A stretch of 32,000 nt of DNA from Candidatus Saccharimonadota bacterium (GTDB lineage Bacteria; Patescibacteriota; Saccharimonadia; Saccharimonadales; Saccharimonadaceae), in NCBI GenBank assembly GCA_020160975.1, contig JAIUPJ010000001.1:480001-512000 (forward strand), given 5' to 3'. Under the pieces are notes generated by a model. It ran no database searches and was not told where the DNA came from. It saw nothing but the letters and a program-made list of their open reading frames with translations. The position numbers and the translations under genes were made by a program. This document shows positions 9,644 to 25,756 of this stretch, one piece after another (position 1 is the stretch's first letter; each line of letters opens with the position of its first letter).

Positions 9644-9672
9644 TTGACTTTTTGGGTCATCTATGGTAATAT
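9644..9672 (+). promoter_or_regulatory. sigma-70-like promoter for the T4SS operon
   Basis: TTGACT (9644-9649), 17-nt spacer, TAATAT (9667-9672). ATG 9682 is only 9 nt after the -10 box, which implies a leaderless or near-leaderless mRNA. Confidence 0.55.
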
Positions 9673-9681
9673 TAGATAGAT

Positions 9682-12600
9682 ATGTGGGAGTCTTTCAAGA
9701 TCATCTCGCACGGTAGAATATCGTTGCGACGTCTTTCCCTGTTGGCCACCTCTGTTCTGATGGCTATATTTTTGGCAACAGGTGTCATTGTACCCACCGT
9801 CCTCGCTGCCGATGCTGTCCGTAGTGGCAACACCGTCACCTACGAGGGAAAAACCTACCAACCTATCGACAAAACCGCCACGCCGTCGCAAGTACCAGCC
9901 GGCCTGCCGACTACTGAGGGTTATGTTTCCTTTGATACGAGTGGCAAAAAGGCCTACTACTTGCTGACAAATGGCCCTGCTGCTAGCTCCACCACTGCTA
10001 CCTATACCGTCTATGATATGCCTACGATGGGCTCGTATGGCAATCACTCGCCACCGACAAACATCGCCATCGTTAGTAGCCCAGTCTCTGCCGCCACCCA
10101 GCAAAATAGCGGTACCACCTGTGATAGCACCCAAACGGCCGGTATCGGCTGGATTCTTTGTCCTGTGGTCAATTTCCTGGCAAAGAGCATGGATTACATC
10201 TACAAAGTCATCGCCGACTTCCTGGTGGTGCGGACTATCACCACCGACACATCTGGTGCACTCTACCACATGTGGGCCATCATTCGCGATATCGCCAACC
10301 TCTGTTTCGTTGGCGTATTTTTGGTGATTATTTACTCGCAAATCAGCGGCCTCGGTTACAGCAACTACAATCTCAAAAAGATGCTGCCGCGGCTGATAAT
10401 TGGCGCGATTTTGGTGAACACTTCGTTCTGGATCTCTGCACTGGCGGTTGATGCTTCAAACATTCTTGGCGTTTCGATTCACGACGTCTTCATGACCGTC
10501 ATGCAAAACCTCAACACCAACGGCAACTACGACAGCGTCACCGTGCCCGATTGGCAGTCAATCACCATCATAGCGCTGAGTGGTAGCGCCGCGACTGCTG
10601 GCCTGACAATCTTTGTGCTAGCAAATACCGTCACTGGTGCGCTGGCACTACTCATCCCAGCATTGGTTGGCGTACTTCTGGCAGCACTAGTGGCATTCGT
10701 GGTGCTGGCCGCTCGCCAAGCGCTCATCGTCTGCTTGGTTATCATCTCGCCGCTGGCGTTTGCCGCTATGTTGCTGCCAAACACCGAAAAATACTTCGAC
10801 AAATGGCGTGGTGCGTTGACCACACTCCTCCTTTTGTTTCCGATATTCTCCGTCATTTTCAGCGGTGCACAGCTAGCAGGTATGGCCATCGTCCAGAGCG
10901 CTGGCGGCAACCTCGTCACGATTATCCTCGGTATGACTGTTCAAGTCGCCCCGATTGTCATCACGCCGCTGCTCGTCAAGTTCAGCGGGGGATTAATCGG
11001 TCGCATCGCCGGTATGGTCAATAATCCAAATAAGGGCTTGCTCGACCGCACCAAAAACTGGAGCAGGGGCCTCGCTGCCGAGCGTCGCAACCGCGCTATC
11101 GCTGGCCGCATGATGTCCGACGGCACCACCCAGCTCAAGCGTCGCCACGTACCGACTGCTTATCTTGACGCCCGTCGTCGGGCAAGGGAAGGCCGGCGCA
11201 AAGCCTATGAAGCAGGTGCAGAAGCACGCTTTAGTGGCACTCGGCAAGGTCATGATGTCGAAGCGCTCAATAAGCACTATGGCAATGTCAAAGCACGCAA
11301 CGAAAACCGATTTGCTGCATCACCTCGTGGCAATCGCCTGGAAATCGAAGCTCGCCACATTGCAGTCGACAAGCAGAATATTGAGACACAAATGATGAGC
11401 GATCCTGAGCATGGATACAAACTCCGAACTCGTCAGCGAGACGCCGAGACGGCCAAACTCAATGCTGACAGCAAATACCTCCAAGATGAGCAAGGACAAA
11501 AGGCCGAGTACCGGTCACGCATGGCGAATGTTCGCAAAACGCTCGCCGAATCTAAGTTCGAAGAGACCTCGATGGGGGCGCGTGTGGATATGGCAAAGCG
11601 CGAAGTAGAGCGTCGTAAGCACACTGCCGAGGCCCATCATGAGCAAAGCTGGCATTTCCGCAACCAGACCGATGCTGGCTCGCAAGAGCGGGAAATGAAA
11701 CTGCGAATCTCAACAGACGGCGCTTCGGCAGCCAAAGCGAAAGTTGATGCTATCTACAACGAGCTCAAACTCGATAACACCTCAGGGCTTACTACAACTA
11801 TGCTCAACAGCGTGAAAGACCAACTAGGAAAAGAAGCGTTCCAAGTCGCTCTCGAGACAAACCTCACCGCCAAACGCTCTGCCACGGCCGATAGTGAGCT
11901 CAAGTCAAAGATAAACAAAGAGTTGCTTACCGATGGTGTAACCTACCAACTCGATATGCATGGCAACAAGGTTTTAGACGCCAGCGGTAGCCCTATTGTT
12001 GCTAGCAGGATTACTGTTGACGGCAAAACTCTCCAGGACTATGCTACCGGCATTGGTAAACGCGAGCTCATGCTGGCAAACTCCGTTGCAGAAGATCGCG
12101 CCGATTGGGGTAAGCAGGCGCAGGCCGCAAGTGAACTCATCGCTCACTTCAAACTCGATAGCAACGCCGTCCAAAAACTAGCGATAGGCGGAGAAGGTAG
12201 CGACCCTGGTGAAAGGTATGTCACAATAAAAGATGATAGCGGCAACGAGTTTACCTTTGACGCGGCCGACGAATACGTCAAAGAAGCAGCAATCTCAAAG
12301 CAGTTCAAAGCTGGTTCATATGGCCAAAAAATGGCTATTCTCAAGGAGACTGGAGAAAACATTGCTATCAAAGACGCCTCTGGCAATATTGTTGGGCACC
12401 GAACAGGCTACAACTACCATCACCGAGCAACCGCCCAGTCTGATGCAATTGCCTCTGGTATCGCCGGTCTGGCGCCATTCATCAACGACGTAACCTACAA
12501 TGAAATCCTCAAGGGTAATTTCAATGGTGATGATAGTATGCGTATGCATGCACTGCGTCAGGTGTTTGAAGGTCGTATAAAAGCAAGCAACCTCACTGGC

Positions 12601-12921
12601 GCAAACCAAGATGCGCTCTCGATTCTCTACGATCTTGGACGACTCAAAGAAAGTGCCGACCCAAGCAAGCGTGCAGAATACGACCGTTACAAGACGATGT
12701 TGACAGAGTTCTTTGGCGACTCATACGGCACCGATTCCGCTATGTACAAAGCTGCTACAACCAACTTCGACAGCGTCTTTGACGAGAAGTGGCGTGGACT
12801 CCTCAGTACCACAAAGGGCATCATGGAAAACTCAAACCTCAACAGCAATACTGCAGACGAGGCGAAGAAAGTCATGCGCGACATCCTTGTCGAAGAGGGC
12901 GTTACTTTCCGCGAGCGATAG
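9682..12921 (+). CDS. VirB6/TrbL-like polytopic T4SS channel protein, paralog 1, with a ~600-aa charged helical C-terminal extension
   Basis: 1079 aa. Signal or anchor sequence, a ~130-aa exported domain ending in the motif CDSTQTAGIGWILCPVVNFL, a multi-TM block (about 160-470), then a long K/R/E/A-rich region. The N-terminal ~470 aa align by eye with the 13956..16445 product. Confidence 0.75.
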   Translation: MWESFKIISHGRISLRRLSLLATSVLMAIFLATGVIVPTVLAADAVRSGNTVTYEGKTYQPIDKTATPSQVPAGLPTTEGYVSFDTSGKKAYYLLTNGPAASSTTATYTVYDMPTMGSYGNHSPPTNIAIVSSPVSAATQQNSGTTCDSTQTAGIGWILCPVVNFLAKSMDYIYKVIADFLVVRTITTDTSGALYHMWAIIRDIANLCFVGVFLVIIYSQISGLGYSNYNLKKMLPRLIIGAILVNTSFWISALAVDASNILGVSIHDVFMTVMQNLNTNGNYDSVTVPDWQSITIIALSGSAATAGLTIFVLANTVTGALALLIPALVGVLLAALVAFVVLAARQALIVCLVIISPLAFAAMLLPNTEKYFDKWRGALTTLLLLFPIFSVIFSGAQLAGMAIVQSAGGNLVTIILGMTVQVAPIVITPLLVKFSGGLIGRIAGMVNNPNKGLLDRTKNWSRGLAAERRNRAIAGRMMSDGTTQLKRRHVPTAYLDARRRAREGRRKAYEAGAEARFSGTRQGHDVEALNKHYGNVKARNENRFAASPRGNRLEIEARHIAVDKQNIETQMMSDPEHGYKLRTRQRDAETAKLNADSKYLQDEQGQKAEYRSRMANVRKTLAESKFEETSMGARVDMAKREVERRKHTAEAHHEQSWHFRNQTDAGSQEREMKLRISTDGASAAKAKVDAIYNELKLDNTSGLTTTMLNSVKDQLGKEAFQVALETNLTAKRSATADSELKSKINKELLTDGVTYQLDMHGNKVLDASGSPIVASRITVDGKTLQDYATGIGKRELMLANSVAEDRADWGKQAQAASELIAHFKLDSNAVQKLAIGGEGSDPGERYVTIKDDSGNEFTFDAADEYVKEAAISKQFKAGSYGQKMAILKETGENIAIKDASGNIVGHRTGYNYHHRATAQSDAIASGIAGLAPFINDVTYNEILKGNFNGDDSMRMHALRQVFEGRIKASNLTGANQDALSILYDLGRLKESADPSKRAEYDRYKTMLTEFFGDSYGTDSAMYKAATTNFDSVFDEKWRGLLSTTKGIMENSNLNSNTADEAKKVMRDILVEEGVTFRER

Positions 12922-12949
12922 TAGCCACCACAGGAATATTACCTAGTAG

Positions 12950-12978
12950 TTGACAATTATAAGCATATGGTGTATAAT
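12950..12978 (+). promoter_or_regulatory. perfect-consensus sigma-70 promoter inside the T4SS cluster
   Basis: TTGACA (12950-12955), 17-nt spacer, TATAAT (12973-12978). A 62-nt leader follows, with AAGGAG at 13022-13027 before ATG 13041. Confidence 0.65.
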
Positions 12979-13040
12979 GCTAACCAATACGTTACAGCGA
13001 TAAGTAGTGGCGTACATTCATAAGGAGAATTTGAATTATT

Positions 13041-13901
13041 ATGACAAATCGCTTAAAGAATCTGCGCGAAAAACTACCGGTACGCAAGCTAAAAGCTAGC
13101 GGCGCTATGGGTTTAGCAGCCCTGTCTCTAGCAGGCTGCCTTGCATCTGGTGACGCTAAGGCATCAACACCCAAGCCAAGCCCGTCAATCAGCCAGGAGG
13201 CAACACCTTCTACTGCCTCGACAGAGACCCTAGCGCCAGTCGCACCAGCAACTCCTGAGGCTCCAAAGCCGAGTGTCGACGCTATTTCTGAACAACTAAT
13301 GAGCCCATCGGTGAGCATAGAAGAATTTGCTAAATACCCTCAATCGGCTCGTATCGCCGCAGGCCTCGTGCCCGCAATTGAGCTAGAGGATAATTGGATC
13401 GGGATGGACTTGTTTTCGGGTTCATTTAGTGACGGTACTACTCTTGATTCCTACAATCCCATTAGGGGTAAGGTTTTAAATGTCGGCAGTACATTTAAAG
13501 ATATCTATCGACAAAATATGTTCTTTGAGCAGCTGATGAGCGCCCAACGTGTAAGCAGCAATGAAACGACACTCGATAAAGATAGAGCAATAAAAATCGC
13601 CCTCGGTCCATACTCATATAGCCCAGAAAGTACCGTGGCAGTGTCAAAAATTAAGGCAATTGGTAATCAACCCAATTTGCTTAAATTCAGTAGTGATAAC
13701 CTACGCGATGAGTCGTTTATCTCCTATGAACTGAAACGCGACACTCAACTCGACGATGGCACAACAGCCGATGTGATGGAAGGTGTTGTTGAAGTTGGTG
13801 GTCAGCAGTACACGTTGATTTTTGTATTTGTGCCGGTTGAATCTCTTGGTGCAGGCAATGGCATCTGGACGCTTCAGAGCCTAGAAGAAACAGCCAAATA
13901 A
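13041..13901 (+). CDS. lipoprotein of unknown function (T4SS-associated; candidate VirB8/TcpC-like role)
   Basis: Lipobox LSLAGC at residues ~29-34, a P/S/T/A-rich linker (STPKPSPSISQEATPSTAS...APKPS), then a ~190-aa globular domain ending in GIWTLQSLEE. Confidence 0.75.
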   Translation: MTNRLKNLREKLPVRKLKASGAMGLAALSLAGCLASGDAKASTPKPSPSISQEATPSTASTETLAPVAPATPEAPKPSVDAISEQLMSPSVSIEEFAKYPQSARIAAGLVPAIELEDNWIGMDLFSGSFSDGTTLDSYNPIRGKVLNVGSTFKDIYRQNMFFEQLMSAQRVSSNETTLDKDRAIKIALGPYSYSPESTVAVSKIKAIGNQPNLLKFSSDNLRDESFISYELKRDTQLDDGTTADVMEGVVEVGGQQYTLIFVFVPVESLGAGNGIWTLQSLEETAK

Positions 13902-13921
13902 ACCTAGCTTGCACTCGTATC

Positions 13922-13955
13922 AATAAAGAGTATAGCTTATGCTATACTCTTTATT
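13922..13955 (+). terminator. perfect 15-bp AT-rich hairpin abutting the next start codon (terminator or attenuator / translational element)
   Basis: AATAAAGAGTATAGC, loop TTAT, GCTATACTCTTTATT. ATG 13956 follows with zero spacing, so there is no SD. The right arm contains TATACT, 7 nt before the ATG. Confidence 0.5.
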
Positions 13956-16445
13956 ATGAAGCTTAGTAAGGTGAGTGCATCTCGGCGATTATTGTTTATA
14001 CCGATCGCACTTTTTGCGCTTGCCACGATTATCGGTCAATCTCTCGTGGCGCCAGCCTCTGCTGCGCCTACCAAACAAGAGTGTTGGGATCAGCTGAACA
14101 ATAAACCTTATGAATATTCTAGGCAGACGATAGACAAGCAAAATCTGATAAATAGCTGTAAAAGTGCAGGGTTTTGTACTGTATCATCGTTTGACCTTGC
14201 TACCAATATCACAACATTATCCTGCGCCAACCCTAGTAGCCTTGGCAGCACCACAGTAGGAAAGACCGACGCGGAAGTAAAGCCACTTGTCACACTAGTG
14301 TGCGGCAACACACCTACTAGTGATCGGCTAATGGACGCCTATGTCCAGTGTGGCGACAATGTACGCAAGATATATTCATCCTGCAATTACACAGGTGGAT
14401 CCATCACTTCAAACATGCAAGATACTGTGGCAAATTCTAGTAAGTGTGTTTATGGTAAGCTCTCGAACCCTAAACCCTCTGCTAGCGCTGTCACCGATGC
14501 GGTGCAGGCGGGCAGAAATGCAGCAAACAATATTGTAGATGGAGCAATTGCAGATCAGGCAAAAAAAGAATTGCAGGCAAAATGTGACGAGCGTGCCAAG
14601 GCTGGCGAAAACGTAGAATGGAATGGAACAGAGTGTGCTCCAAAGGCCGATAGCAAAACAACCTGTGCAGTCAACGGCATTGGTTGGATCGTCTGCCCTG
14701 TTATGAACTTTCTCAGTAGTTTGATGGACAAAATGATCAAGTTCCTTGGTGAAAACTTCTTGCAGACAGAAGCCGACCTAGTCCAAGCAAATGACAGCAA
14801 CGGGACATATGTTGCCTGGAAAGTATTCCGCAATTACGCAAATGTCGCATTCATTGGGGTATTCTTGTTTATTATTTATTCTCAAATAACTGGTGCGGGT
14901 GCATCAAATTACGGCCTTAAACGCATGTTGCCACGACTTATCACAGCGGCGATCTTGGTTAATGTATCGTTCTTTATCTGCCAACTGGCCATTGATGCAA
15001 GTAATCTAGTAGGATTTGGTATATCTGAGTTATTCAATGGCATTACCCAGCAAGTAGCTACGAGCGGTACAGCCCAAACTACAGGTGCAGGTAGTTGGGA
15101 GAGTACGATCGGTGCAGTAATGATTGCTGGTGTCGGACTAGCGCTTGCGCTTGCGCTAGGTATTCTTGTACCCGCACTTTTAGCTGCACTTATGATTGTC
15201 ATCATATTGCTGATTCGAAAGGCGCTCATTGTTCTATTGATCGTAGTTGCGCCTCTTGCATTTGTTGCCTATTTACTCCCAAACACCGAGCAATGGTTTA
15301 AAAAATGGTATAAAATGCTGTTCAACCTACTCATGGTCTTTCCTATTATTGCTGCAGTGTTCGGAGGTAGCAAACTGGCTGCATCTATCATCAACACTAT
15401 AGGCGCTACCGCGACTAATGCAGCCACAGGCGAAGAAGATGCAAAGTTATCCTTGCAACTTATCGCACTTGGCATCACTGTTGTACCGTTCTTTGTTGTT
15501 CCAGCGTTACTAAAAGGCGCTATTGCTGCGTCCGGAGCTATCGGCGCAAGACTCGGTAATTATAGTGATCGCGCCAATAAGCGTGTTGGCGCAAGAAGCA
15601 AAGAGGGCTATCTTGGTCGGCAAATGGCCGAACGGAAAAAACTTGCTGCAGCGCGTAATGCTCAGATAGCAGGTGGAACCTACAAAGGTAAATACGGAAA
15701 ATGGAATCCTCGAAATCTCCGAAGCGCGACCTCAGGTGTACTGAACAGATCGAAAGTCACTGGACGAGCGGGTGATCGCATGGGCGCAATCGGTGCAGCA
15801 GTGTCGCAAAAAGACCAGAGTGAAGAGGTAGAGAACGAAGTGGCTCGCATGTCCAGTGAGTGGGGGCCCCATGAGGAGCTCAGCAAGGCATCGGAAGCAT
15901 ACGCAGCGGCATTGCATAGTGGAGATGTAGTTAAAGCACGCGCTGCGCAAAAGATACTTCTAGGTAAGGGAAATGCTGGAATTGCCGAGATTCGAAAGGG
16001 CGTTGCTTCCACAGACTCTATGTCAGACCAGCAAAGACTTGACAACAAGGCAATCGCTTACGCAAGAGGGGACTTAGCCTCTGCGGGCATTAAGGGTAAA
16101 GATGCCGCACTGAATGCCTGGAGCTATGATTCAAAGAGCAGGTCACTATCAAGTCATGATGCTAGTGCAGGTACGTTCGATGGGCTTACGGATGCAGAAA
16201 TGGCGGGGCAATCGGCAGGAAGTCTCGAAAAGGCGATTTCGGCAGGTGGCCTCACGGCTGAAAGAGCTGCTGGTATGCAGGATAATCCTAACGTATGGCA
16301 AAACCTATCAGAAGATAAAAGGAAAGTCATCATTGGAGCCCAGACTCGCGTCAGAGATACTGGTGCTGCACACGAAGAGGCGCTCGCACAAAATGCACTA
16401 TACGACATGAATAATAAAAATAACGGGCCTAGTTCAAACCCTTAG
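13956..16445 (+). CDS. VirB6/TrbL-like polytopic T4SS channel protein, paralog 2, with a Cys-rich exported N-domain
   Basis: 829 aa. Signal peptide ...APASAAP and a ~230-aa domain with ~12 Cys ending in CAVNGIGWIVCPVMNFL. Shares with paralog 1 the blocks FIGVFLFIIYSQITGAGASNYGLKRMLPRLI, AILVNVSFFICQLAIDASN and VAPLAFVAYLLPNTEQWFKKW. A/K/G-rich C-terminal tail. Confidence 0.75.
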   Translation: MKLSKVSASRRLLFIPIALFALATIIGQSLVAPASAAPTKQECWDQLNNKPYEYSRQTIDKQNLINSCKSAGFCTVSSFDLATNITTLSCANPSSLGSTTVGKTDAEVKPLVTLVCGNTPTSDRLMDAYVQCGDNVRKIYSSCNYTGGSITSNMQDTVANSSKCVYGKLSNPKPSASAVTDAVQAGRNAANNIVDGAIADQAKKELQAKCDERAKAGENVEWNGTECAPKADSKTTCAVNGIGWIVCPVMNFLSSLMDKMIKFLGENFLQTEADLVQANDSNGTYVAWKVFRNYANVAFIGVFLFIIYSQITGAGASNYGLKRMLPRLITAAILVNVSFFICQLAIDASNLVGFGISELFNGITQQVATSGTAQTTGAGSWESTIGAVMIAGVGLALALALGILVPALLAALMIVIILLIRKALIVLLIVVAPLAFVAYLLPNTEQWFKKWYKMLFNLLMVFPIIAAVFGGSKLAASIINTIGATATNAATGEEDAKLSLQLIALGITVVPFFVVPALLKGAIAASGAIGARLGNYSDRANKRVGARSKEGYLGRQMAERKKLAAARNAQIAGGTYKGKYGKWNPRNLRSATSGVLNRSKVTGRAGDRMGAIGAAVSQKDQSEEVENEVARMSSEWGPHEELSKASEAYAAALHSGDVVKARAAQKILLGKGNAGIAEIRKGVASTDSMSDQQRLDNKAIAYARGDLASAGIKGKDAALNAWSYDSKSRSLSSHDASAGTFDGLTDAEMAGQSAGSLEKAISAGGLTAERAAGMQDNPNVWQNLSEDKRKVIIGAQTRVRDTGAAHEEALAQNALYDMNNKNNGPSSNP

Positions 16446-16459
16446 GGTAGGTTATAGCT

Positions 16460-17506
16460 ATGGCGGTATACAAAGTCGCACAAGATGTAGAGGCAGATGA
16501 CAAGCTCATCGGGCCGTTTAGTTTTCGCCAGTTTGTCTACCTGATCATCGTGGCGCTGGCTGGGGCGCTGGCGTGGGGATTATCACGTGTTTTTACCCCG
16601 CTTTTCGTCCTGCCTTTACCGATCATAATTTTCTTTGGGGCGCTGGCACTACCGTTACGCAAGGATCAACCGATGGAGGTCTACCTAGCTGCCCTAGTGT
16701 CGTTCTATCTCAAACCTCGGCGTCGTCTCTGGGTACCTGATGGGGTGGAATCGCTGATCGAAATCACCGCACCAAAAATTGTCGAGGTGCAACGCACAAA
16801 AGACCTCTCCCAGGTAGAGGCAGAGAAACGACTCAGTTACCTGGCTGACATTGCCGACACTGGCGGCTGGGCGATTCGCCACACCACCGATCCATTCATG
16901 AACACTGCCATGAACAATGACGCATGGTTCGCTGCCCAGCAGACCGAGGACATGCTTGATAGCAGCGGGGGTATTGCTCAGTCATTTGACACCATGATCG
17001 CTCAGACCGACGAGCGCCGACGCCAAGAGATGGTCGAGCGCATGCACAATACCCAAGTTGCGGCATCACAACAAGCTCCTCAACCCCGTGTCACGCCGCT
17101 CGCTGACCCCTATGCCAATCTGTCAACACCTCAGCAACCCTCTCCAGTGGCACCTCAAGGTCAGACATCGCCAACCTTTGCACAATCTCCTGCGCCAGCC
17201 GCTGACGAACCATTCACGCAACCTCAATACAATCCGTACCCGACGTCGATCCACCAAAGTGTCATCCAGCCGCTTAGTCAACCTCAACCACAAACTACCC
17301 AGCCACCCGTTTCAACCCCTGACCAGACAACCCCGAGCCTAGGAGCCGAAAATACTAGCGTAAGCACTAGCGAGAAGCCTATCTCACCTGATATAATTAA
17401 TCTTGCAAACAACTCCGATTTATCTATCGAGACGATTCAGCGTGAGGCTGACCGTATCAGGAAGAAAGAAGAAGACGATGGTGAGGTCTTCATCTCGCTT
17501 CACTAA
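16460..17506 (+). CDS. PrgI/VirB3-like T4SS membrane protein with a long P/Q-rich C-terminal extension
   Basis: The N-terminus VAQDVEADDKLIGPFSFRQFVYLIIVALAGALAW plus a second TM matches the PrgI-family layout as I recall it. Residues ~190-300 are P/Q/S/T-rich. 348 aa, against ~100-130 aa for typical VirB3/PrgI. Confidence 0.65.
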   Translation: MAVYKVAQDVEADDKLIGPFSFRQFVYLIIVALAGALAWGLSRVFTPLFVLPLPIIIFFGALALPLRKDQPMEVYLAALVSFYLKPRRRLWVPDGVESLIEITAPKIVEVQRTKDLSQVEAEKRLSYLADIADTGGWAIRHTTDPFMNTAMNNDAWFAAQQTEDMLDSSGGIAQSFDTMIAQTDERRRQEMVERMHNTQVAASQQAPQPRVTPLADPYANLSTPQQPSPVAPQGQTSPTFAQSPAPAADEPFTQPQYNPYPTSIHQSVIQPLSQPQPQTTQPPVSTPDQTTPSLGAENTSVSTSEKPISPDIINLANNSDLSIETIQREADRIRKKEEDDGEVFISLH

Positions 17507-17538
17507 TAGTAGAGAATCGGCCTAATCAGGAGTGGGAA

Positions 17539-18459
17539 GTGCCGCCAAACAATCAACCGCCAATTACTTCCGTCCCTCCAGCCGGTGCTCCGGCTGGCAC
17601 TTTTGATGCGAGCATGCCGATGCAAGCTCCTCCTATGAATGCCCCAATGGCCGCCCCGATGACAGCGCCGATGGCCGCCCCTACTGCAAATCCTATCGCT
17701 CAACAGCCAGCCGGCAAATCGACACCAAAGGCCAACTCAACCCAAAACAGCCTCCTCCTGAGTGAACTTCGCGACGGTATGGTTATCATGTCGGACGGCA
17801 CATTCAGAGCAGTAATTGCCTGCAAATCGATTAACTTCGACCTCATGAGCTCGCGCGAACGAGAGGGTGTGGAGTATAGTTATCAAAACTTCCTCAACGC
17901 TCTCTACTTTCCGATCCAGATCTATGTTCGGTCTCAACGTGTTGACATTGGCCCCTACCTTGACCGGCTTGAAGACATTCGCCGCAATCAAGACAATATG
18001 CTCCTCAATGTCCTGATGGATGATTATATTCAATTTATCGATGTTCTCAGCCAAGAAGCGAATATCATGGACAAGAGCTTTTTCATCATCGTGCCTTTTT
18101 TCCCGAGCGGCGATGCCGCCAAAGTGATGGAGCAGGGCAAGGGATTCTTCGACAAGTTTTTTGGTGGGGCCAAGGCAAATGCTACAATCACACGCATCGA
18201 TAAAGCCACCTACCAAAAGGCCAAGGACGAGATCAAAAACCGTGTCGATTCTGTCATGAGCGGCCTGTTGCAGGTCGGTATTCAGGCAGTACAGCTCAAT
18301 ACAAAAGAGCTTGGCGAGTTGTATTACAACGTTTACAACCCCGACACCGCTGTACGTGAACCGCTTGGCGACTTTAGTTCAGTGACATCAACCTATGTAC
18401 GTCGTGGTGGCGAGCCACTACAGCAACCAACCCAAGGAGTGCCAAATGGCCAAGCGTAA
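17539..18459 (+). CDS. hypothetical T4SS protein; the central domain resembles the non-ATPase N-terminal domain of VirB4-family proteins
   Basis: GTG start with AGGAG 6 nt upstream. A/P/M-rich N-terminus (APPMNAPMAAPMTAPMAAP), then LRDGMVIMSDGTFRAVIACKSINFDLMSSREREGVEYSYQNFLNALYFPIQIYVRSQRVDIGPYL. No Walker motifs and no TM. Overlaps virB4 by 14 nt. Confidence 0.6.
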   Translation: MPPNNQPPITSVPPAGAPAGTFDASMPMQAPPMNAPMAAPMTAPMAAPTANPIAQQPAGKSTPKANSTQNSLLLSELRDGMVIMSDGTFRAVIACKSINFDLMSSREREGVEYSYQNFLNALYFPIQIYVRSQRVDIGPYLDRLEDIRRNQDNMLLNVLMDDYIQFIDVLSQEANIMDKSFFIIVPFFPSGDAAKVMEQGKGFFDKFFGGAKANATITRIDKATYQKAKDEIKNRVDSVMSGLLQVGIQAVQLNTKELGELYYNVYNPDTAVREPLGDFSSVTSTYVRRGGEPLQQPTQGVPNGQA

Positions 18460-20296
18460 AGACCCGATGGATATCGCTGCCGAGCAGCGTGTCAAAGAGC
18501 AGGCCGAAGTTGAGCAAGCTTTTCTCAAGGGAATGACCACACTGCGTGACCTGATCGCGCCAAGCAGCCTCGAGATTCATAGTAGCCACTTCCGTCTCGG
18601 TACAAAGTACGGCCGCACGATGTATATCTATGGCTATCCCCGCGAACTCTATACCGGCTGGCTATCTGGACTCATCAATATCGATCAAGTGCTCGACATC
18701 AGTATGTTTGTCTACCCGGTTGAAACCGCGGTTGTTCTCAAAAACCTTGCCAAAAAAGTCACCCAGCTCGAAGCTGACATGTCTATCAGTGCCGACAAAG
18801 GCCGCACCCGCGACCCAGGCCGCGAAGCTGCCTTGCAGGATGCCGAGGAGCTACGCGACCAGCTACAAGTTGGGGCCGAGCGTTTTTTCCGCTTTGGTCT
18901 CTATGTCACGATTTATGCCGATAGTCTAGAAGAGCTTGGGTTTGTGCAGCACAACCTAGAAACACTCTTTGGGCAACAGCTTGTCTATAGCAAGGTTGCG
19001 AGCAGCCAACAAGAACAGGGGCTCAATAGCACTATTCCGCAGATGTCCGACCAATTGCAGATTCGCCGCAACATGAATACTGGAGCAATCTCGACGAGCT
19101 TCCCATTCACCAGCGCCGACCTGACACAAGAAAAAGGCGTGTTATATGGCATTAACATGCATAACAACGGTCTCGTGATCTTTGACCGCTACAGTCTCGA
19201 AAACGCCAATATGGTGGTGTTTGCAAAATCTGGTGCAGGTAAGTCGTTTACCGTCAAGCTCGAGGCACTGCGTAGTATGATGACCGGCGCCGATATTCTC
19301 ATCATCGACCCTGAAAACGAGTACCAAAAACTCAGCGATGCCGTCGGCGGCAGCTACATTCGTCTCAGCCTCAATAGCGATACGCGCATCAACCCGTTTG
19401 ATTTGCCGCGCGTTATCGACAGCGACGAGGCCGATGATGCCCTGCGAGCCAACCTCGTGACACTCCATGGTCTTCTTCGACTGATGCTCGGCGGCTCACA
19501 GCAAACGGCAAGCGGACAGCTAATGGCTGGTCTGACGCCGGCTGAAGAAGCTGATCTCGACCAGGGACTGATCGATACGTATGCTCGCGCTGGCATCACC
19601 AGCGACCCGCTAACGCACGATTCCACGCCGCCAACTATCGGCGATCTCTACGACACACTGCTCCACATGGGCGGCACGGGGCCTGCACTCGCTCAGCGCC
19701 TACGCAAGTACACGAGCGGGACTTTCGCCGGTATCTTTAGCCAGCAGAGCAACATCGACATCAACAACAATATGGTTGTCTTCAACATTCGCGATCTTGA
19801 GGACGAACTTCGCCCTGTTGCGATGTATATCGTGCTCAGTCACATCTGGAATATCACACGCACCGTCCAGAAAAAGCGCATGCTGATCGTTGATGAGGCT
19901 TGGCAGCTGATGAAATACGATGACTCTGCAAACTTCCTCTTCAGCCTCGCCAAGCGCGCCCGTAAGTATTTCCTCGGTCTCACTACTATCACACAGGACG
20001 TCGAGGACTTTATGGGCAGCAAAATGGGTCGTGCTATCGTTGCCAACTCCTCCATGCAGCTACTTCTCAAGCAGTCGTCCAGTGCTGTCGATGTACTTGG
20101 TGATGTCTTCAAACTCACCGAGGAGGAGCGCAAACGTCTTGCCAATTTCCCAGTTGGACAAGGCTTGTTCTTTGCCGGCCAAAATCACGTTCATATCCAG
20201 ATCATCGCCAGCCAAACCGAAACCGGGCTGATCACTACCAATCCGCAAGCCTCACTCCTCCAAAACCAGCAACCAGGAGCTGGGCAAGGAGCATAA
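18446..20296 (+). CDS. virB4: VirB4-family T4SS ATPase
   Basis: Walker A VVFAKSGAGKSFTVK, Walker B RMLIVDEAWQLM, and an N-domain YGRTMYIYGYPRELYTGWLSGLINIDQVLDISMFVYP. Start set at ATG 18446 (MAKRKDP), with AAGGAG 6 nt upstream. Confidence 0.9.
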   Translation: MAKRKDPMDIAAEQRVKEQAEVEQAFLKGMTTLRDLIAPSSLEIHSSHFRLGTKYGRTMYIYGYPRELYTGWLSGLINIDQVLDISMFVYPVETAVVLKNLAKKVTQLEADMSISADKGRTRDPGREAALQDAEELRDQLQVGAERFFRFGLYVTIYADSLEELGFVQHNLETLFGQQLVYSKVASSQQEQGLNSTIPQMSDQLQIRRNMNTGAISTSFPFTSADLTQEKGVLYGINMHNNGLVIFDRYSLENANMVVFAKSGAGKSFTVKLEALRSMMTGADILIIDPENEYQKLSDAVGGSYIRLSLNSDTRINPFDLPRVIDSDEADDALRANLVTLHGLLRLMLGGSQQTASGQLMAGLTPAEEADLDQGLIDTYARAGITSDPLTHDSTPPTIGDLYDTLLHMGGTGPALAQRLRKYTSGTFAGIFSQQSNIDINNNMVVFNIRDLEDELRPVAMYIVLSHIWNITRTVQKKRMLIVDEAWQLMKYDDSANFLFSLAKRARKYFLGLTTITQDVEDFMGSKMGRAIVANSSMQLLLKQSSSAVDVLGDVFKLTEEERKRLANFPVGQGLFFAGQNHVHIQIIASQTETGLITTNPQASLLQNQQPGAGQGA

Positions 20297-20301
20297 AATA
20301 A

Positions 20302-23049
20302 ATGGCAGATCCTGACGACCGAATCGGCGATAAATTTGAACAGGGCAAAGGCGCTTACTCAACAGCAGGTGATCTAAAAGACGCAGAAAACGCCAACAGC
20401 ACCTACCAGGACGGCGAGGGAAGTACCGAGCAACCCGGCGATGCCGTCCGCGATGCCGAATCATCCTCCAGCGGATCGTGGAGTACAAATCTCGATAGCT
20501 TCAGGGATAGTAACAATACAAATAAATCCGCCAATCCAGTGGTGACTGTCCTCAAAAAAGGCGGCCCGGGTGGAATTATGGGTGGCGGGCTTATCGCTTT
20601 TCTTTTCATGTCTTTTTTTGTCGCCCCAGGCTCACTGCTAATAAATCTCAAAGAAAACTTCGTTGCAAACTTTGATCAACAGGCCGTTACAGCTCAAAGT
20701 CGCACCAACCGAATGATGGTAAAGCGTCTCACCGACACAGATACTAAGGGCGCATGTACTACAATCAAGCTCGCGTGTAAGTATACAAAACCAAGCAAAC
20801 GGTTCTTAACGAACCTCAATGATGCCGGCATCAAAGCTATTGCTGCTGATGGTACCGAAATGACTCCAGATGACCAGCGATGGGGGAGTAGAGAGCGTCC
20901 TGCCAAGTACAAACTAGCCGACGGTTCGCTTGAGTTCAATGCTAAGGAATTTAACACCGCTCTCCGCAACAATCCTGCCGTACGGGTTGCCTTTACAAAA
21001 GCTCACAATCCACGTTGGGTGAATTGGGTGGACAAAAAAGCCATAACATTTTTTCAAAAAAATGGTGCTTCAAAGCTTGTCAGCAAGATTTTTAGCGAAA
21101 AGGATGTTAAAGCCCGACAAGATGCATTTGATGATTTACTAAAAAATAAGAATACCAGTGCCACAGCAGTAAAAGATGCTGTTAATAGTGAAGGTAAAAA
21201 ACTCGCAAAATCAACCGCAAAAAAAATTAGCGGTAAGACTGATGCGGTATTTATTGGAACAGCAGTTGCATGCGCGGGATTTAAAGTACCCGGAGCAGTC
21301 AGTAATGTTTTTCGTGCGTACAGAATGCGTAATGTGATTGCCGCTGGGTTTGTATTCCTGACGCTTGCGGATGCTATTAAATCCGGCAGCGATGTCACAC
21401 CGGAACAATCCTCGGCAGCAGGCGACATGCTCACTGCAGTAGTAGCTGGTAAGTCTGCTATGGATGGGTCAGTAAAGTATGGATTATTCAAGGACGCCGC
21501 TTCAGCATCGAATTCTTCGTCATTAAAAAAATTTATGCCCGGTGCTGGACTTGGCATACTTGATACATTTAACAAAATTGCCAATGGAAAGGCAGCTCAG
21601 CAGTCCTGTGCCGTGGCAAATAGTGCCGAACTTCAAGCAGTGGTAGCGGCAGCAAAAATTGCAAACTCCTGGAACCCTGCTGGGTGGATAGCAATCCTTG
21701 AAACTGTAGTAGCGTTTGCTGGTTCGGCTCTTATTGGCAAGATTATCGAAGTTTCAGCACCGTATATTATTGATTTTATGAGTGGGCTAATCGACTGGAA
21801 TAAAGCACTTGACCTGATTATCGGCAATGACGCAGTTGGAGTGACGGGAGAAGAATTGGGTGATGTCGTATCACTCGGTGGTGCACTCGGTATGGGGCAA
21901 CTCGCTAATCAAGGTGGCAATATACCCCTGACGCCCGCTCAAAAAGTTGCCTTCGACCAGTCAATTACAACCCCAACACAGTTAGCCTGGGCAGAAGAAG
22001 ACCGACTCACCCATAGTCCACTCGACGCGACAAACCCAAACACTGCGCTCGGTGCTATTACTACAAAACTTCTCCCGCTCATGGCAAGTGTTCGATCAGC
22101 AAGTAGTTTTCTCACGCTATTACCACAAACCTCATTGGGTGGTTTTGGCTCAATGCTCCGTAGCCAATCGGTACATGCAGCCAGTGAGGCAGACTGGGAG
22201 CTCTGCAAGGACGATTATGCAATTAAAGCATCGGGAGTCGCAGCCGGGCCACTATGCGACATACAATATGGGGTACCTGCAGAATATATGGGTCTTGACC
22301 CAGAAGACGTGCTGACCCACCTGAAAGATCTCGACCAAATAGATGATGAAGGAAATCCGAAATCAGGCAGTGATCTTGAGGAGTATGTCGCTGCTTGTAA
22401 TGATGGACTACCGTCAATCCCTGATGACTGCATCATAACACCAGGAGACGACAAAAGTGCGTATTTTGCGCTATATCAGATCGATACCAGAGTTATCGAC
22501 ACTATGGATAACGAGCCACCTACACCGGGAGGAGGTGGCAGTAGTGGTAGTGCAACAACTGGCGGGGGAGCGGTGTCTGGGTCTGATATTGAAATCGCCA
22601 AGATGATCGTCGCTAATCCAAACATCGCGGTAGATAGTAAGTATGCAGGGCAAATACAAGCATATGCCAATGGAGACACGAGTTGTAGAATAGATTCCAG
22701 TATTCTCAAGCTCATCGCAACACTTGGGCAGTCTTTCAAGATTACTATATCCTCACTCAATCGATTCTGTACCAACACTCTTACCGCATCTGGAGCAAGA
22801 AGTCTTCATTATGCAAGCGGCGGGGGAGGTGCGGTGGATATATCAATTATCAACGGCACCCCAGCTAGTGGTGGTAATGCAGCTGATATAGAGGTCTACA
22901 ATCGGGCGCTAAGCATCCTACCAGACAGAAAACTTGAACTCGGCCAAATTAACTGTCGGCCAGCAAGTGCTGTCGTAATTCCTCCAGGCAATAGTTCTGT
23001 TCAAGTTACCGACTCCTGTAACCATGTACACATCGGAGTTTACCCGTGA
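20302..23049 (+). CDS. large membrane-anchored protein with a C-terminal LAS-type (M15-like) zinc peptidase domain
   Basis: 915 aa. Acidic disordered N-terminus, one TM (GIMGGGLIAFLFMSFFVAPGSLLI), a ~600-aa central region, a Gly-rich linker (PPTPGGGGSSGSATTGGGAVSGS), then SLHYASGGGGAVDI ... DSCNHVHIGV (H-x-D and H-x-H metal-ligand pattern). Confidence 0.7.
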   Translation: MADPDDRIGDKFEQGKGAYSTAGDLKDAENANSTYQDGEGSTEQPGDAVRDAESSSSGSWSTNLDSFRDSNNTNKSANPVVTVLKKGGPGGIMGGGLIAFLFMSFFVAPGSLLINLKENFVANFDQQAVTAQSRTNRMMVKRLTDTDTKGACTTIKLACKYTKPSKRFLTNLNDAGIKAIAADGTEMTPDDQRWGSRERPAKYKLADGSLEFNAKEFNTALRNNPAVRVAFTKAHNPRWVNWVDKKAITFFQKNGASKLVSKIFSEKDVKARQDAFDDLLKNKNTSATAVKDAVNSEGKKLAKSTAKKISGKTDAVFIGTAVACAGFKVPGAVSNVFRAYRMRNVIAAGFVFLTLADAIKSGSDVTPEQSSAAGDMLTAVVAGKSAMDGSVKYGLFKDAASASNSSSLKKFMPGAGLGILDTFNKIANGKAAQQSCAVANSAELQAVVAAAKIANSWNPAGWIAILETVVAFAGSALIGKIIEVSAPYIIDFMSGLIDWNKALDLIIGNDAVGVTGEELGDVVSLGGALGMGQLANQGGNIPLTPAQKVAFDQSITTPTQLAWAEEDRLTHSPLDATNPNTALGAITTKLLPLMASVRSASSFLTLLPQTSLGGFGSMLRSQSVHAASEADWELCKDDYAIKASGVAAGPLCDIQYGVPAEYMGLDPEDVLTHLKDLDQIDDEGNPKSGSDLEEYVAACNDGLPSIPDDCIITPGDDKSAYFALYQIDTRVIDTMDNEPPTPGGGGSSGSATTGGGAVSGSDIEIAKMIVANPNIAVDSKYAGQIQAYANGDTSCRIDSSILKLIATLGQSFKITISSLNRFCTNTLTASGARSLHYASGGGGAVDISIINGTPASGGNAADIEVYNRALSILPDRKLELGQINCRPASAVVIPPGNSSVQVTDSCNHVHIGVYP

Positions 23050-24326
23050 TGATTATGCGCGCAATTCTAATAGCAATTGCCGTTATCGTGGCGACACCGC
23101 ATCATGCTATCGCCGCAGGATTTAGCCCTCAGTTCTACTCTGGCAATGATATCTTGTTTTATGACCCTCGCGCCACAGCCTGCACCTCAAATTCAAGCGT
23201 ATCATCAAGTGGTGCAGGCATCTCTAGTGCCGACGAAAACAAAAATGCCGAAGCAATTCTCCGCTATCTCACCGGTAAAGGTATGACACTAGCCCAGGCT
23301 GCTGGGTTTGTCGGCAACATGAAGCAAGAGTCGGGCCTTAATCCTGCAATTATTCAGGGTGGAGGAATCGCCGATAGCTCTTATACACCAGTTAATGGAG
23401 TTGGCTTTGGACTAGTACAGTGGACATTCTCCACGCGCCAAGGTCCGCTCGTAGAACTTGCAACCTCAACTGGTCGACCAGTCACTGATATTAATTTACA
23501 GCTCGATTACGTCTGGCAAGAGATAAATGGTGGATGGAAATCAACCCTTCAAGCCCTCGCCGCTAATCCTTCCGTCACACCTACAGAAGCAGCAGCGATT
23601 GTTCATGGAAATACACATTTTGGCAGCGACCCGCGATTTACCAATGCACCACGACTAGGGTACGAAGCCTCTGCAGACTCAGCCGACGCCGTCTATCGAG
23701 TGCGCGGGGGAAATGCTGAGTATTTCTATAATATGTTTCGCTCGCAAATCCAGGATGGCGCAGGGATTAGTGCAGACACAACTACCACTGGTGGAGCAGT
23801 TGTTAGTACGACAAGTTCATGCTCCCTGGGTAGTTATGCGGCAACAGGCACTTGTCCACAAACTGCACCGGTTTACGGCGAGGGTGGCAACGGTAGACAA
23901 CTTCGCCAAGCTGATTTCGAAGCAATTTATGGTGTAGGCGGGCCAGATGTAGAGCCTAACCTTGTATCAGTAGATTTCCTCGGTAAGCCTGTTCAGGTTC
24001 ACAAGCTCGCTGCAGCCTGTCTGCAAGCAGTAGTCGACGATATAAATAAAGCGGGTATCAGCTACACCATCAATCAAATTGGAGGATACCGGGGGAGTGG
24101 TGGTGCGGGCGCGGCCGCACTCAAGGACGGTTACCACTATTATGGTTTAGCAGTCGACATCAATTGGGATACAAATCCGTATATACGCGGAAGAGGCGTC
24201 TCTGCTCCATACGACATGCCACAACAGTACGTCGATATCTTTCATGCGCACGGCTGGTCGTGGGGTGGTAACTGGAATAGCGCCAAAGATTATATGCATT
24301 TTGAATTTAATGGCCTAGGCCCATAA
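23049..24326 (+). CDS. secreted bifunctional cell-wall hydrolase: lysozyme-like (phage tail lysozyme type) N-domain plus M15 D-Ala-D-Ala-peptidase-like C-domain
   Basis: Signal peptide ...ATPHHAIAA. N-domain AILRYLTGKGMTLAQAAGFVGNMKQESGLNPAI...GFGLVQWT. C-domain DGYHYYGLAVDINW...HGWSWGGNW..AKDYMHFEF. The ATG overlaps the previous stop (TGATG); the ORF track starts it at GTG 23046. Confidence 0.8.
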   Translation: MIMRAILIAIAVIVATPHHAIAAGFSPQFYSGNDILFYDPRATACTSNSSVSSSGAGISSADENKNAEAILRYLTGKGMTLAQAAGFVGNMKQESGLNPAIIQGGGIADSSYTPVNGVGFGLVQWTFSTRQGPLVELATSTGRPVTDINLQLDYVWQEINGGWKSTLQALAANPSVTPTEAAAIVHGNTHFGSDPRFTNAPRLGYEASADSADAVYRVRGGNAEYFYNMFRSQIQDGAGISADTTTTGGAVVSTTSSCSLGSYAATGTCPQTAPVYGEGGNGRQLRQADFEAIYGVGGPDVEPNLVSVDFLGKPVQVHKLAAACLQAVVDDINKAGISYTINQIGGYRGSGGAGAAALKDGYHYYGLAVDINWDTNPYIRGRGVSAPYDMPQQYVDIFHAHGWSWGGNWNSAKDYMHFEFNGLGP

Positions 24327-24343
24327 GAGGGAGAGTTGAGTTA

Positions 24344-25756
24344 ATGGATGAACCCATAATTAACGTGAGAAAAATTATCCGCATCGGATTAATTGCGGTT
24401 GGGGTGCTGTGCGTCCTATGGTTCATCTGGTTTGTCACACAGCATGGCGGTGTCAAAATAACCGCAAATGACAATAATGCATCTGTTATTATTATGCCGT
24501 TTGATGACCAGCGTACTGTCGCTGAGAGTAAAGGATCGGTATATTCTTTTCTCCCGATTGGCGACTACATCGCACGTATCAGTCTCGATGGTAAAGAAAC
24601 ACGAAGAGTATTCTCTATTAAAGCATTCTCTGTGCAAGATATTTCACTCAAACTAGCTGATACCACACAAGTCTCTCCTGTCACCAATTTTTTTCCCGCC
24701 TCTTTTGCCGTGTCTGGGCAGAACATATCGTTTTTCGACTCGGAGCGACAGAGCCTTGGGCAAGTTCGCGACACCTACAGTGATATCGACTCCACACTCG
24801 TCTATGAGACGGCAATCTGGAGCTCATTTGGTAATGGCTACGCCGTAGCACGAGATCCCAAAACAAATGAGCGTCGTTTCATAAAAATTACCGATTCTCA
24901 TGTTGCTACTTTTTCTACGCCCGCGCCCATCACTACTCAAACATATTTAGCATTTTCGGTTTCGAGAGACGGCACGCTCTTCGTTATTCAAGATGGATTG
25001 ATCTATTCATATAGTAATAGTTCTTACACGAAACTTGCCGAGACAAGCAAGCAAGCAACGATTGTTGGCTCAAACAATCAAACACTCTCTTTATTTCTCC
25101 GTAGTAGTGAAGATAGTTGCGAAATGCAGTTTTTCTCGATAACGAAAAAATCGGTCACCAAAAAACAACCGGTAGAATGTATTCACAGTCCTAGCTATGA
25201 TTATGCAGTAGTGTGGTCGGGTGATAATAAATCTGTGGCTATCACACAGGGTAATTCGCTTGTTATAACTAATAATTCTTTCGAAACAAGCTATACGATT
25301 CCTGACCAACAAGCATCGAATCCGCTCTGGCTATCGAACGATGAGCTCGTCTATGTTGCTGCCAATAAAGTCTGGAAATACTCAATTTCAAAACAAGAGT
25401 CGACCACACTCGGTAGTGTCCCAAACTACATTACGCTCCTTTCGCTGGAACGTGATCAAGAATCGCAGACACTTTACTTTACTGGCTCAGCTTCGGATGT
25501 GGTAAGCCTCTATAAACTCACGTCCCAAACGCCCGATATCAACGCTGTTAAGCTTGGCGAGTCAAATATGCAAACCCTTTCCGATTATTGCCAAATTCGT
25601 TACATCAACACTTCAAAGCTTGTCGTAATCGGCTTTGCCGCACCAGAATACGTTGATTTCTGCCGTAAGTCAATCTCACAATACACTGCATCGATTGGAT
25701 TGCCAGATATTCCAATCGAGTTCTCTTTGCTTACTGATATTGGACAAGTCGAATAA
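24344..25756 (+). CDS. hypothetical N-terminally anchored, beta-rich extracytoplasmic protein (last gene of the T4SS operon)
   Basis: 470 aa. Single TM IIRIGLIAVGVLCVLWFIWFV, then S/T/V/Y-rich sequence that looks like a beta-sandwich plus propeller. RBS GAGGGAG lies upstream. No family recognised. Confidence 0.65.
   Translation: MDEPIINVRKIIRIGLIAVGVLCVLWFIWFVTQHGGVKITANDNNASVIIMPFDDQRTVAESKGSVYSFLPIGDYIARISLDGKETRRVFSIKAFSVQDISLKLADTTQVSPVTNFFPASFAVSGQNISFFDSERQSLGQVRDTYSDIDSTLVYETAIWSSFGNGYAVARDPKTNERRFIKITDSHVATFSTPAPITTQTYLAFSVSRDGTLFVIQDGLIYSYSNSSYTKLAETSKQATIVGSNNQTLSLFLRSSEDSCEMQFFSITKKSVTKKQPVECIHSPSYDYAVVWSGDNKSVAITQGNSLVITNNSFETSYTIPDQQASNPLWLSNDELVYVAANKVWKYSISKQESTTLGSVPNYITLLSLERDQESQTLYFTGSASDVVSLYKLTSQTPDINAVKLGESNMQTLSDYCQIRYINTSKLVVIGFAAPEYVDFCRKSISQYTASIGLPDIPIEFSLLTDIGQVE

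Follow-up and report, generated by a model that had tools for sequence, protein, structure and literature searches.

Beside the replication origin of a Candidatus Saccharimonadota bacterium lies a set of genes that together encode most of a type IV secretion system (T4SS), and neither a coupling protein nor a relaxase is found at the locus. What is this machine, where does it come from and what could it do for its owner? We analyzed the 32,000-nucleotide stretch that contains it (contig JAIUPJ010000001.1, positions 480,001 to 512,000; hereafter the window), for which an initial annotation had proposed a nine-gene operon at 9682-25756 with a divergently transcribed pilin array and had read it as a core, non-conjugative apparatus. 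ORF calling confirmed all nine co-oriented open reading frames (ORFs) on the + strand, here termed g1 to g9 (Table 1). The locus itself is already known from publications of 2023-2025. It is almost certainly the chromosomal T4SS described for Saccharibacteria, which descends from MPF-FATA-type conjugation machinery of monoderm bacteria and is the gene-for-gene orthologue of SEML1_0004-0019 from Southlakia epibionticum ML1. The initial remark that T4SS-like genes had been noted in surveys understates this record, as the system, the absence of a relaxase, the position near dnaA, the TrsD homolog and the pilin arrays have all been published.

Identity of the locus and its parts

The cluster of S. 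epibionticum ML1 was reported to be essential by transposon insertion sequencing (Tn-seq) in host co-culture, with the exception of the gene for the NTF2-like protein SEML1_0012, and it comprises neither a relaxase nor a coupling protein (Wang et al., 2023, PMC10633639). Window and ML1 share the order and orientation of tRNA-Ser, comFC, hsp20, six pilins, VirB6, a small exported protein, VirB6, PrgI, a TrsD-like protein (~300 amino acids, aa), VirB4 (612-616 aa), a large protein ending in a DD-peptidase, a lysozyme, dnaN and dnaA. They differ in that the last operon slot is occupied by two proteins of ~210-250 aa (PEGA and prealbumin-like) in ML1 and by a single 470-aa protein here, in that the hydrolase combines two lysozyme-like domains with a cysteine protease in ML1 but a lysozyme with an M15 domain here, and in that the ML1 counterpart of g2 bears a Tat-type signal whereas g2 has a plain lipobox. 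Furthermore, recF follows dnaN in ML1, as it does in ~39 related loci, but is absent from this place in the window, where the operon ends 10 nucleotides (nt) from the dnaN stop codon (25756-25767).

At least 563 species-representative genomes contain a relative of VirB4. The 80 best matching ones, all of them Saccharibacteria-type assemblies with 83-95% amino acid identity, served as the comparison set to which all counts over species loci refer. Nearly every locus that is long enough shows the same arrangement, with pilins on the - strand, then VirB6, a small exported protein, VirB6, PrgI, the TrsD-like protein, VirB4, a large anchored protein and a hydrolase on the + strand, followed by dnaN and dnaA on the - strand; the position beside dnaN/dnaA is fixed in 56-58 loci. 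In the window, three perfect DnaA boxes at 28640-28701, three with one mismatch at 26918-27077 and a cumulative GC-skew minimum that coincides with the dnaA/DnaA-box region establish that the locus is truly adjacent to the origin, in agreement with the initial annotation and with Pfam matches for both neighbouring genes.

A survey of Patescibacteria (Quinonero-Coronel et al., 2025, PMC12102498) describes T4SSs of MPF-FATA ancestry that have a TrsD homolog and VirB2 arrays of 2-11 genes, lack a relaxase, are not linked to a coupling protein and lie near dnaA/dnaN. The window shares with this clade an MPF-FATA-related VirB4, the adjacent TrsD, PrgI, VirB6, the pilin array and the proximity to dnaA/dnaN, and nothing essential differs from what that account contains. 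The published VirB4 phylogeny likewise places the Patescibacteria system as MPF-FATA-related, and the same survey lists almost no VirB8 and few VirB1 homologs (PMC12102498). A review of December 2025 carries the system as a known newcomer of unknown function.

Our searches for coupling proteins and relaxases covered the window and up to 10 kb around VirB4 in the 80 related species. No ORF of the window gave a family match to a coupling protein, relaxase, integrase or VirB11, or to the outer-membrane core proteins VirB7, VirB9 and VirB10, and neither flanking direct or att-like repeats in the window nor a compositional break at the locus was detected. The absences listed in the initial annotation (VirD4, VirB11, relaxase, integrase, flanking repeats) are therefore real at the scale of the window. 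Within 10 kb of VirB4 no coupling ATPase was found in the 80 species, Walker-A proteins of at least 250 aa being VirB4, DnaA, RecF and three singletons, and no mobility or relaxase-like gene cluster recurs in these neighbourhoods. That the system has no coupling protein, as originally claimed, holds for the locus and these surroundings; the claim has to be confined to them, since other parts of Patescibacteria genomes commonly carry VirD4-like genes. According to the survey, the VirD4-like gene of ML1 is distant from the T4SS locus and non-essential (PMC12102498). Conserved synteny, the lack of mobility genes and repeats and the essentiality of the ML1 orthologue favour the original view of a core machine over that of a remnant of an ICE (integrative and conjugative element) or plasmid.

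The assignments of VirB4, VirB6 and PrgI, for which profile searches had been named beforehand as a check, held up when the window proteins were compared with Pfam, NCBIfam and PHROGs, complemented by hhalign and by Foldseek searches of the PDB with AlphaFold2 (AF2) models. The VirB4 ATPase g6 scores 371.7 bits against NF045971 (CD1110 family; cutoff 325) with profile positions 175-732 aligned, matches PDB entry 4AG5, the C-terminal domain of Thermoanaerobacter VirB4, at 3.8e-46 and P-loop_TraG at 4.7e-28, and contains the Walker A and B motifs KSGAGKS and LIVDEA. Its start was moved to 18446, giving a 14-nt overlap with the g5 stop. The initial annotation named it as the only convincing P-loop ATPase of the 16 kb; the other P-loop proteins of the window are DnaA and one ABC ATPase. 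The best NCBIfam models for g6 are CD1110 of Clostridioides CTn2 and the VirB4 of Mycoplasma ICEs, and the closest plasmid-borne VirB4 proteins, 29-37% identical, come from Actinomycetota and Bacillota. Weak matches exist to CedB (1.5e-11; 43.7 bits, cutoff 700) and CedD (2.3e-5).

The PrgI/VirB3-like protein g4 reaches 46 bits against PF12666 (cutoff 27). For g5, previously described as resembling the VirB4 N-terminal domain, the evidence comes from several sides: it matches the first ~130-185 positions of NCBIfam VirB4 models and the TrsD model at 2.9e-5 (24 bits, below the curated cutoff of 200), PF26593 (TraC-like) is precomputed on its relatives, and the top 14 Foldseek matches in the PDB for its AF2 model of moderate quality (predicted local distance difference test, pLDDT, 60) are all TrwK/VirB4 of R388 (probability 0.75-0.99), while a sequence-profile search of the PDB returned nothing significant. 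A separate g5 ORF that abuts or overlaps the VirB4 start is present in 79 of 79 loci, with a 1-nt stop/start overlap in 57, so that the split is conserved and does not stem from a frameshift; the idea that g5 and g6 are one frameshifted VirB4 gene was thereby ruled out, and the two are separate in ML1 as well. The Pro/Ala/Met-rich N-terminus of the TrsD-like protein (17539-17720) carries APMA/PMAA repeats, and the protein is 306, 310, 314, 318 or 322 aa long depending on the strain.

The two VirB6-like channel proteins predicted initially, g1 and g3, are paralogues with TrbL/TrbL_3 support. They share 41% identity across a membrane core of ~300 aa (E 1e-64), and their ectodomains and tails are unrelated. 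The full-length g1 matches TrbL weakly (1e-3, Pfam), and PF19590 (TrbL_3) is precomputed on the identical 1079-aa product of a public contig; the core of g3 alone exceeds the TrbL cutoff by a small margin (27.0 versus 25.9 bits), and its identical 829-aa product bears just a faint precomputed PF04610 (TrbL) mark, the unmarked TrbL_3 matches in the g3 slot belonging to alternative alleles. A sequence-profile search of the PDB with the VirB6 core gave nothing significant (TrwI at E 0.8). The long basic tail of g1 is probably cytoplasmic because of the positive-inside rule. In two relatives a gene for an IS200/Y1-type transposase sits between the second VirB6 and PrgI (L091:7293-7922; L001:7324-7929), which indicates that the operon tolerates insertion at this point.

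The protein originally called a lipoprotein, g2, does carry a lipobox (LAGC, residues 30-33). It evolves fast: two database searches retrieved 5 relatives among 5.8 billion proteins. Its AF2 model is poor (pLDDT 44), and Foldseek returned generic curved-sheet proteins at E >0.2. Its positional counterpart SEML1_0012 is annotated as NTF2-like (ECOD e4ec6D1) and is non-essential (PMC10633639). The description of the operon as having tiny gaps or overlaps requires correction at the g1-g2 junction, where the gap amounts to 119 nt and contains a perfect promoter sequence, and at the VirB4 start mentioned above. Promoters are given here as predicted sites, i.e. matches to the sigma-70 consensus; with TTGACA-17-TATAAT in this gap, g1 and g2-g9 may constitute two transcription units.

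Conserved motor and exchanged modules

Conservation is distributed very unevenly over the operon. The median identity across species amounts to 88% for VirB4, 66% for the TrsD-like protein, 55% for PrgI, 37% for VirB6 and 26% for g7, and g2 and g9 are mostly undetectable; for the same genome pairs the medians for DnaA and DnaN, 74% and 62%, lie below that of VirB4. The contrast is sharper between strains, for which we compared public contigs with a VirB4 100% identical to that of the window and contigs retrieved via an identical DnaN. One public contig of 477 kb (k141_23966 of ENA ERZ27233579) equals the window at 100% identity over 8446-30296. In the contigs with exchanged modules, a backbone of 96-98% nucleotide identity (8537-11450, 12944-13211, 16458-20513 and 25766-30750) is interrupted by three islands that have no or ~66% nucleotide similarity. 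The first (11451-12943) corresponds to the tail of g1, which is replaced from about residue 590, the second (13212-16457) to the ectodomain of g2 and the entire g3, and the third (20514-25765) to g8, g9 and all of g7 beyond residue 70; this last island begins at 22529 instead in two contigs, in the Gly-rich linker ahead of the g7 C-terminal domain.

At the protein level the strain alleles of g3 are 41-60% and those of g2 32-37% identical. Module alleles are as divergent within one species as they are between genera, and among the 80 species loci no donor of the alternative strain alleles closer than ~45% was found. The alternative distal module encodes a protein ending in NlpC/P60, a 139-aa protein, a protein combining lysozyme with a C39-like domain (Peptidase_C39_2), which takes the place of g8, and a 174-aa protein, which together with the 139-aa protein replaces g9. 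The same exchange of g7-g9 is present in a contig found via its identical DnaN (L082). Between the first two islands lies a 268-nt segment (12944-13211) that is 98% identical and contains the perfect promoter together with the signal peptide, lipobox and linker of g2. An alternative g2 protein (P0002) agrees with g2 over the first 57 residues apart from K16E and drops to ~25% identity beyond.

The large anchored protein g7 illustrates the exchange of a single domain. Its C-terminus contains the LAS motifs SxH..GxAVD and DxCxHxH and aligns with VanY-type domains in hhalign (73% probability, E 3e-5), which makes the initial assignment of a LAS/M15-like peptidase reasonable; a sequence-profile search of the PDB with this domain yielded nothing significant, and the body of g7, like g9, has no match in Pfam, NCBIfam or PHROGs. 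The last 300 residues of g7 in 54 species contain VanY (14), M23 (14), CHAP (5), EEP (5), C39-like (2), GH43 (1) or C70 (1) domains and otherwise no known domain, a group in which the LAS type of the window is counted. Two loci that are 91-95% identical in DNA encode g7 proteins with 96% identity over residues 1-813 and unrelated sequences beyond (L023:14255-14823 versus L024). The swappable enzyme cassette comprises ~160 aa and corresponds to 22530-23049 in the window. A polymorphic toxin-immunity arrangement was ruled out as an explanation of this swap, since the non-homologous tract stops at the g7 stop codon and no gene is added. The predicted lysozyme + M15 hydrolase g8 possesses both Pfam domains. 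The 470-aa protein g9, of which relatives occur in 2 of 80 species, is anchored as had been stated, but its designation as beta-rich rests on one sub-threshold beta-propeller match.

A near-invariant motor consisting of PrgI, the TrsD-like protein and VirB4 is thus joined to hypervariable, recombining modules. It is possible, although we regard it as somewhat doubtful, that these modules are the host-range determinants of Saccharibacteria, the hydrolase heads being matched to host wall chemistry and the ectodomains of VirB6 and the lipoprotein to host receptors. Such a host-range reading was not found in the portions considered of the papers on this T4SS, nor were strain-level allele replacement and cassette-like g7 C-termini found described in those of the Patescibacteria survey (PMC12102498).

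Table 1. Features of the T4SS locus and its surroundings (positions refer to the window).
Feature	Position	Strand	Evidence
Seventh VirB2-like pilin gene	3586..4002	+	PF18895 6.8e-9, above cutoff; aligns with array pilins; NF045849 3e-5
Six VirB2-like pilin genes (7035-7472, 7543-7962, 7974-8345, 8342-8635, 8635-9045, 9045-9446)	7035..9446	-	PF18895 1.7e-12 to 4.9e-5
Divergent intergenic region, promoter-like on both strands	9447..9681	.	TTGACT-17-TAATAT with TG extension 9644-9672 (+); 10/12 match 9490-9461 (-)
g1, extended VirB6-like protein, 1079 aa; N-terminal ectodomain, polytopic core, long basic C-terminal tail	9682..12921	+	TrbL, TrbL_3
Perfect sigma-70 consensus TTGACA-17-TATAAT, 12/12	12950..12978	+	Consensus match, g1-g2 gap
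g2, fast-evolving lipoprotein, candidate VirB8-like	13041..13901	+	Lipobox LAGC
g3, second extended VirB6-like protein, 829 aa	13956..16445	+	TrbL 1.6e-5
g4, PrgI/VirB3-like membrane protein with 250-aa C-terminal extension	16460..17506	+	PF12666 8.1e-12, two transmembrane segments
g5, TrsD-like stand-alone copy of the VirB4 N-terminal domain	17539..18459	+	TrsD model, PF26593, Foldseek
g6, VirB4 ATPase, 616 aa	18446..20296	+	NF045971, 4AG5, Walker motifs
g7, membrane-anchored protein, 915 aa; conserved body, swappable C-terminal LAS-type peptidase from ~aa 745	20302..23049	+	Transmembrane segment 90-108, LAS motifs
g8, secreted lysozyme + M15 peptidase	23046..24326	+	Phage_lysozyme2 4.7e-24, Peptidase_M15_4 1.9e-17
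g9, N-terminally anchored 470-aa protein, variable last operon slot	24344..25756	+	One transmembrane segment
dnaN, dnaA, two DnaA-box clusters (26918-27077 and 28574-28701)	25767..28701	-	Pfam, box search, GC skew

Pilins, monoderm relatives and flanking genes

The divergent six-gene pilin array was recognized correctly at the outset, and a seventh pilin gene lies ~3 kb away, outside the coordinates given there; a membrane protein gene, tRNA-Ser, comFC and hsp20 lie between the two. Five of the six array pilins reach the PF18895 cutoff of 26.6 bits, the product of 9045-9446 falling just short of it at 23.8, and five of six have a signal peptide and two hydrophobic helices, 8342-8635 encoding the two helices only. 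The conserved loop of the pilins reads GG..Y..SxGD.S.V.SAKNTILY. The array occupies the position of the essential ML1 pilins SEML1_0014-0019. All seven pilins match NF045849, the Mbov_0395 pilin-like conjugal transfer family of Mycoplasma ICEs, just under its cutoff (6e-10 to 1.4e-2). A similar cluster is found in Bacillota, on an 898-kb replicon of Pontibacillus, where two pilin-like genes (L092:7477-8389) are followed in the same order by genes for a large membrane protein, a small one, a TrsD-like protein, VirB4 and a giant M23 protein, and without a coupling protein within 12 kb; pilin-like genes among monoderms are accordingly not confined to Patescibacteria. These similarities in sequence and gene order suggest that the pilins may already have belonged to the monoderm ancestor and not have been taken from a diderm system.

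Other monoderm systems of the MPF-FATA type (pGO1, pCF10 with its PrgH/I/J/K/L, CTn2 and the Mycoplasma ICE Mbov_0395-0397) resemble the locus in that g6 passes the CD1110 model and in the large anchored wall hydrolase after VirB4, and the succession of VirB3-like, TrsD-like and VirB4 proteins equals that of the gene names TrsC-TrsD-TrsE in pGO1. The locus is set apart from monoderm conjugative T4SSs by the lack of a linked coupling protein, relaxase and oriT, its fixed place in the core chromosome, 6-7 pilins, a duplicated and extended VirB6 and the essentiality of the ML1 orthologue. In a plasmid-borne relative from Embleya, a coupling protein and a relaxation protein directly follow VirB4, i.e. 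they occupy the slot taken by g7 here.

Upstream of the array, a ComFC-like gene (5633-6301, - strand) and hsp20 (6394-6882, + strand) have the same orientation in ML1 and in 10 of 10 loci that reach that far, and a bidirectional terminator-like hairpin is located at 6905-6931. The protein of 476 aa encoded between the seventh pilin and tRNA-Ser (4004-5434, - strand) has ~8 hydrophobic segments; neither it nor the product of a 225-aa ORF at 2338-3015 matched Pfam, NCBIfam or PHROGs. A 69-nt direct repeat (3188-3256 and 5431-5499, 81% identical) corresponds to the 3' ends of two tRNA-Ser genes, with a similar hairpin just outside each. On the other side, the 16-kb operon is transcribed toward the origin and hence head-on to replication, with negative GC skew on the + strand, and it converges with dnaN in ML1 and related loci as well. 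The spacer between dnaA and dnaN contains a 93-aa ORF (26874-27155, - strand) that overlaps the three near-consensus DnaA boxes, has no family match and is related to an ORF in 1 of 80 loci; this stretch probably belongs to oriC and is not a gene.

Possible function of the machine

We give an even chance to the reading that the locus encodes a machine for host contact which forms a pilus and breaches the wall independently of a coupling protein, by analogy with the Trw system of Bartonella. As the coupling-protein homolog of ML1 is distant and non-essential, the essential role does not require a coupling protein, and the most economical reading is then that VirB4 drives pilin extraction and assembly of a pilus or tube. 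VirB4 hexamers would sit on a platform of the two extended VirB6 paralogues, tethered by the PrgI/VirB3-like protein and assisted by the stand-alone TrsD-like copy of the N-terminal domain. This motor would pull Sec-inserted VirB2-like pilins from the membrane to form a pilus or short tube through the wall, and the anchored g7 and the secreted g8 would cut peptidoglycan in its path. Because g7/g8 cassettes are swapped between near-identical strains, these enzymes probably attack the host wall in addition to that of the cell itself. Which host surface is engaged would depend on the second VirB6, the ectodomain of the lipoprotein, the C-terminus of g7, and g8 and g9.

Bartonella Trw lacks a coupling protein, has amplified and diversified trwL and trwJ genes and serves host-specific adhesion (Vayssier-Taussat et al., 2010, PMC2883598). 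Common to both systems are the derivation from conjugation machinery, the missing coupling protein, pilins amplified in tandem, duplicated genes in the VirB6 region and surface parts that diverge faster than the motor; Trw differs in belonging to the diderm MPF-T systems and possessing an outer-membrane core and a VirB5 (TrwJ), in targeting mammalian erythrocytes and in not being essential for viability (PMC2883598). A further difference is that strain variation here resides in VirB6, the lipoprotein and the hydrolases and not in the pilins that could be compared.

Several points weigh against a host-contact pilus with host-matched modules. The array pilins comparable between strains (pil4 to pil6) do not vary, showing 96-97% nucleotide identity. 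The variable tail of g1, being probably cytoplasmic, is left unexplained by matching to host surfaces. Hydrolase diversity could stem from differences in the cells' own walls or from a neutral shuffling of domains among VirB1-like enzymes, as is common in Gram-positive T4SSs. In addition, the Tn-seq essentiality of single genes may include polar effects, and no report of a pilus on these cells was found in the parts of the literature considered.

An effector exporter, which would inject proteins, possibly hydrolase domains or VirB6 tails, into or onto the host bacterium, appears to us unlikely. The bacteria-killing T4SS of Xanthomonas delivers peptidoglycan hydrolases and provides an analogue. 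The polymorphic C-termini of g7 resemble swappable effector heads and include, in 5 of 54 species, the non-wall EEP domain (nuclease/phosphatase-type), and the variable, probably cytoplasmic g1 tail would fit a cargo or a substrate receptor. Export is the usual polarity of T4SSs, and protein export is suggested by Wang et al. (PMC10633639). On the other hand, a coupling protein is missing from the locus and its distant homolog is dispensable in ML1, the g7 swap brings no adjacent immunity gene and no cargo is known. Moreover, the N-terminal anchor or signal sequence of g7 and g8 would take both proteins outside by Sec, without any need for a T4SS.

Rather improbable, in our estimation, is a conduit for the import of host macromolecules or metabolites such as DNA, nucleotides, lipids or peptides, comparable to ComB of Helicobacter and Ced of Sulfolobales. 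Genomes of this type do not allow nucleotides, amino acids and fatty acids to be made de novo, and the review of 2025 speculates on uptake. ComB and Ced share with the locus a VirB4-type ATPase, VirB6-like and small two-helix membrane proteins and the absence of relaxase and coupling protein, so that the known VirB4 systems without these components include importers; the weak CedB and CedD matches of g6 and the synteny of comFC with the pilin array point the same way. However, these matches remain far below the cutoffs, ComB and Ced have no such hydrolase module or pilin array, and neither an import substrate nor a binding protein is evident at the locus. ML1 tolerates deletion of comEC, and its comFC (SEML1_0021) is likewise non-essential, from which it follows that ComEC-dependent DNA uptake, dispensable in this studied relative, is not the essential role.

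We attach little probability to a cell-autonomous envelope machine that would serve the growth of the own wall, division or budding. The essentiality of the ML1 orthologue, the location beside the origin and the presence of several wall hydrolases would agree with it, but alleles that are 40% identical or unrelated within one species are unexpected for self-directed housekeeping, the pilin arrays and the variable proteins anchored at the surface indicate an outward-directed role, and essentiality was measured in co-culture only. Finally, a decayed or cryptic conjugative element that mobilizes DNA via a coupling protein and relaxase encoded elsewhere is highly improbable: although VirB4, PrgI, TrsD and VirB6 are conjugation-type parts, the closest plasmid relatives belong to conjugative-type clusters and relaxases do occur in a few Patescibacteria (PMC12102498), the position at dnaN/dnaA is fixed, the 10 kb around VirB4 contain neither an integrase nor a relaxase or coupling ATPase in the 80 species, flanking repeats and a compositional break are absent from the window, VirB4 is more conserved than DnaA, and the essentiality of the orthologue concerns growth and not transfer.

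A large part of bacterial diversity belongs to the Patescibacteria, which live on other bacteria, and this T4SS is one of a small number of machines whose essentiality for such a life has been demonstrated. Whereas the parts list rediscovers a published system, it is the mosaic structure of the locus that merits further study. The replacement of whole modules speaks for an action of the hydrolases on the host wall, and the module swap provides testable candidates for the determinants of host specificity.

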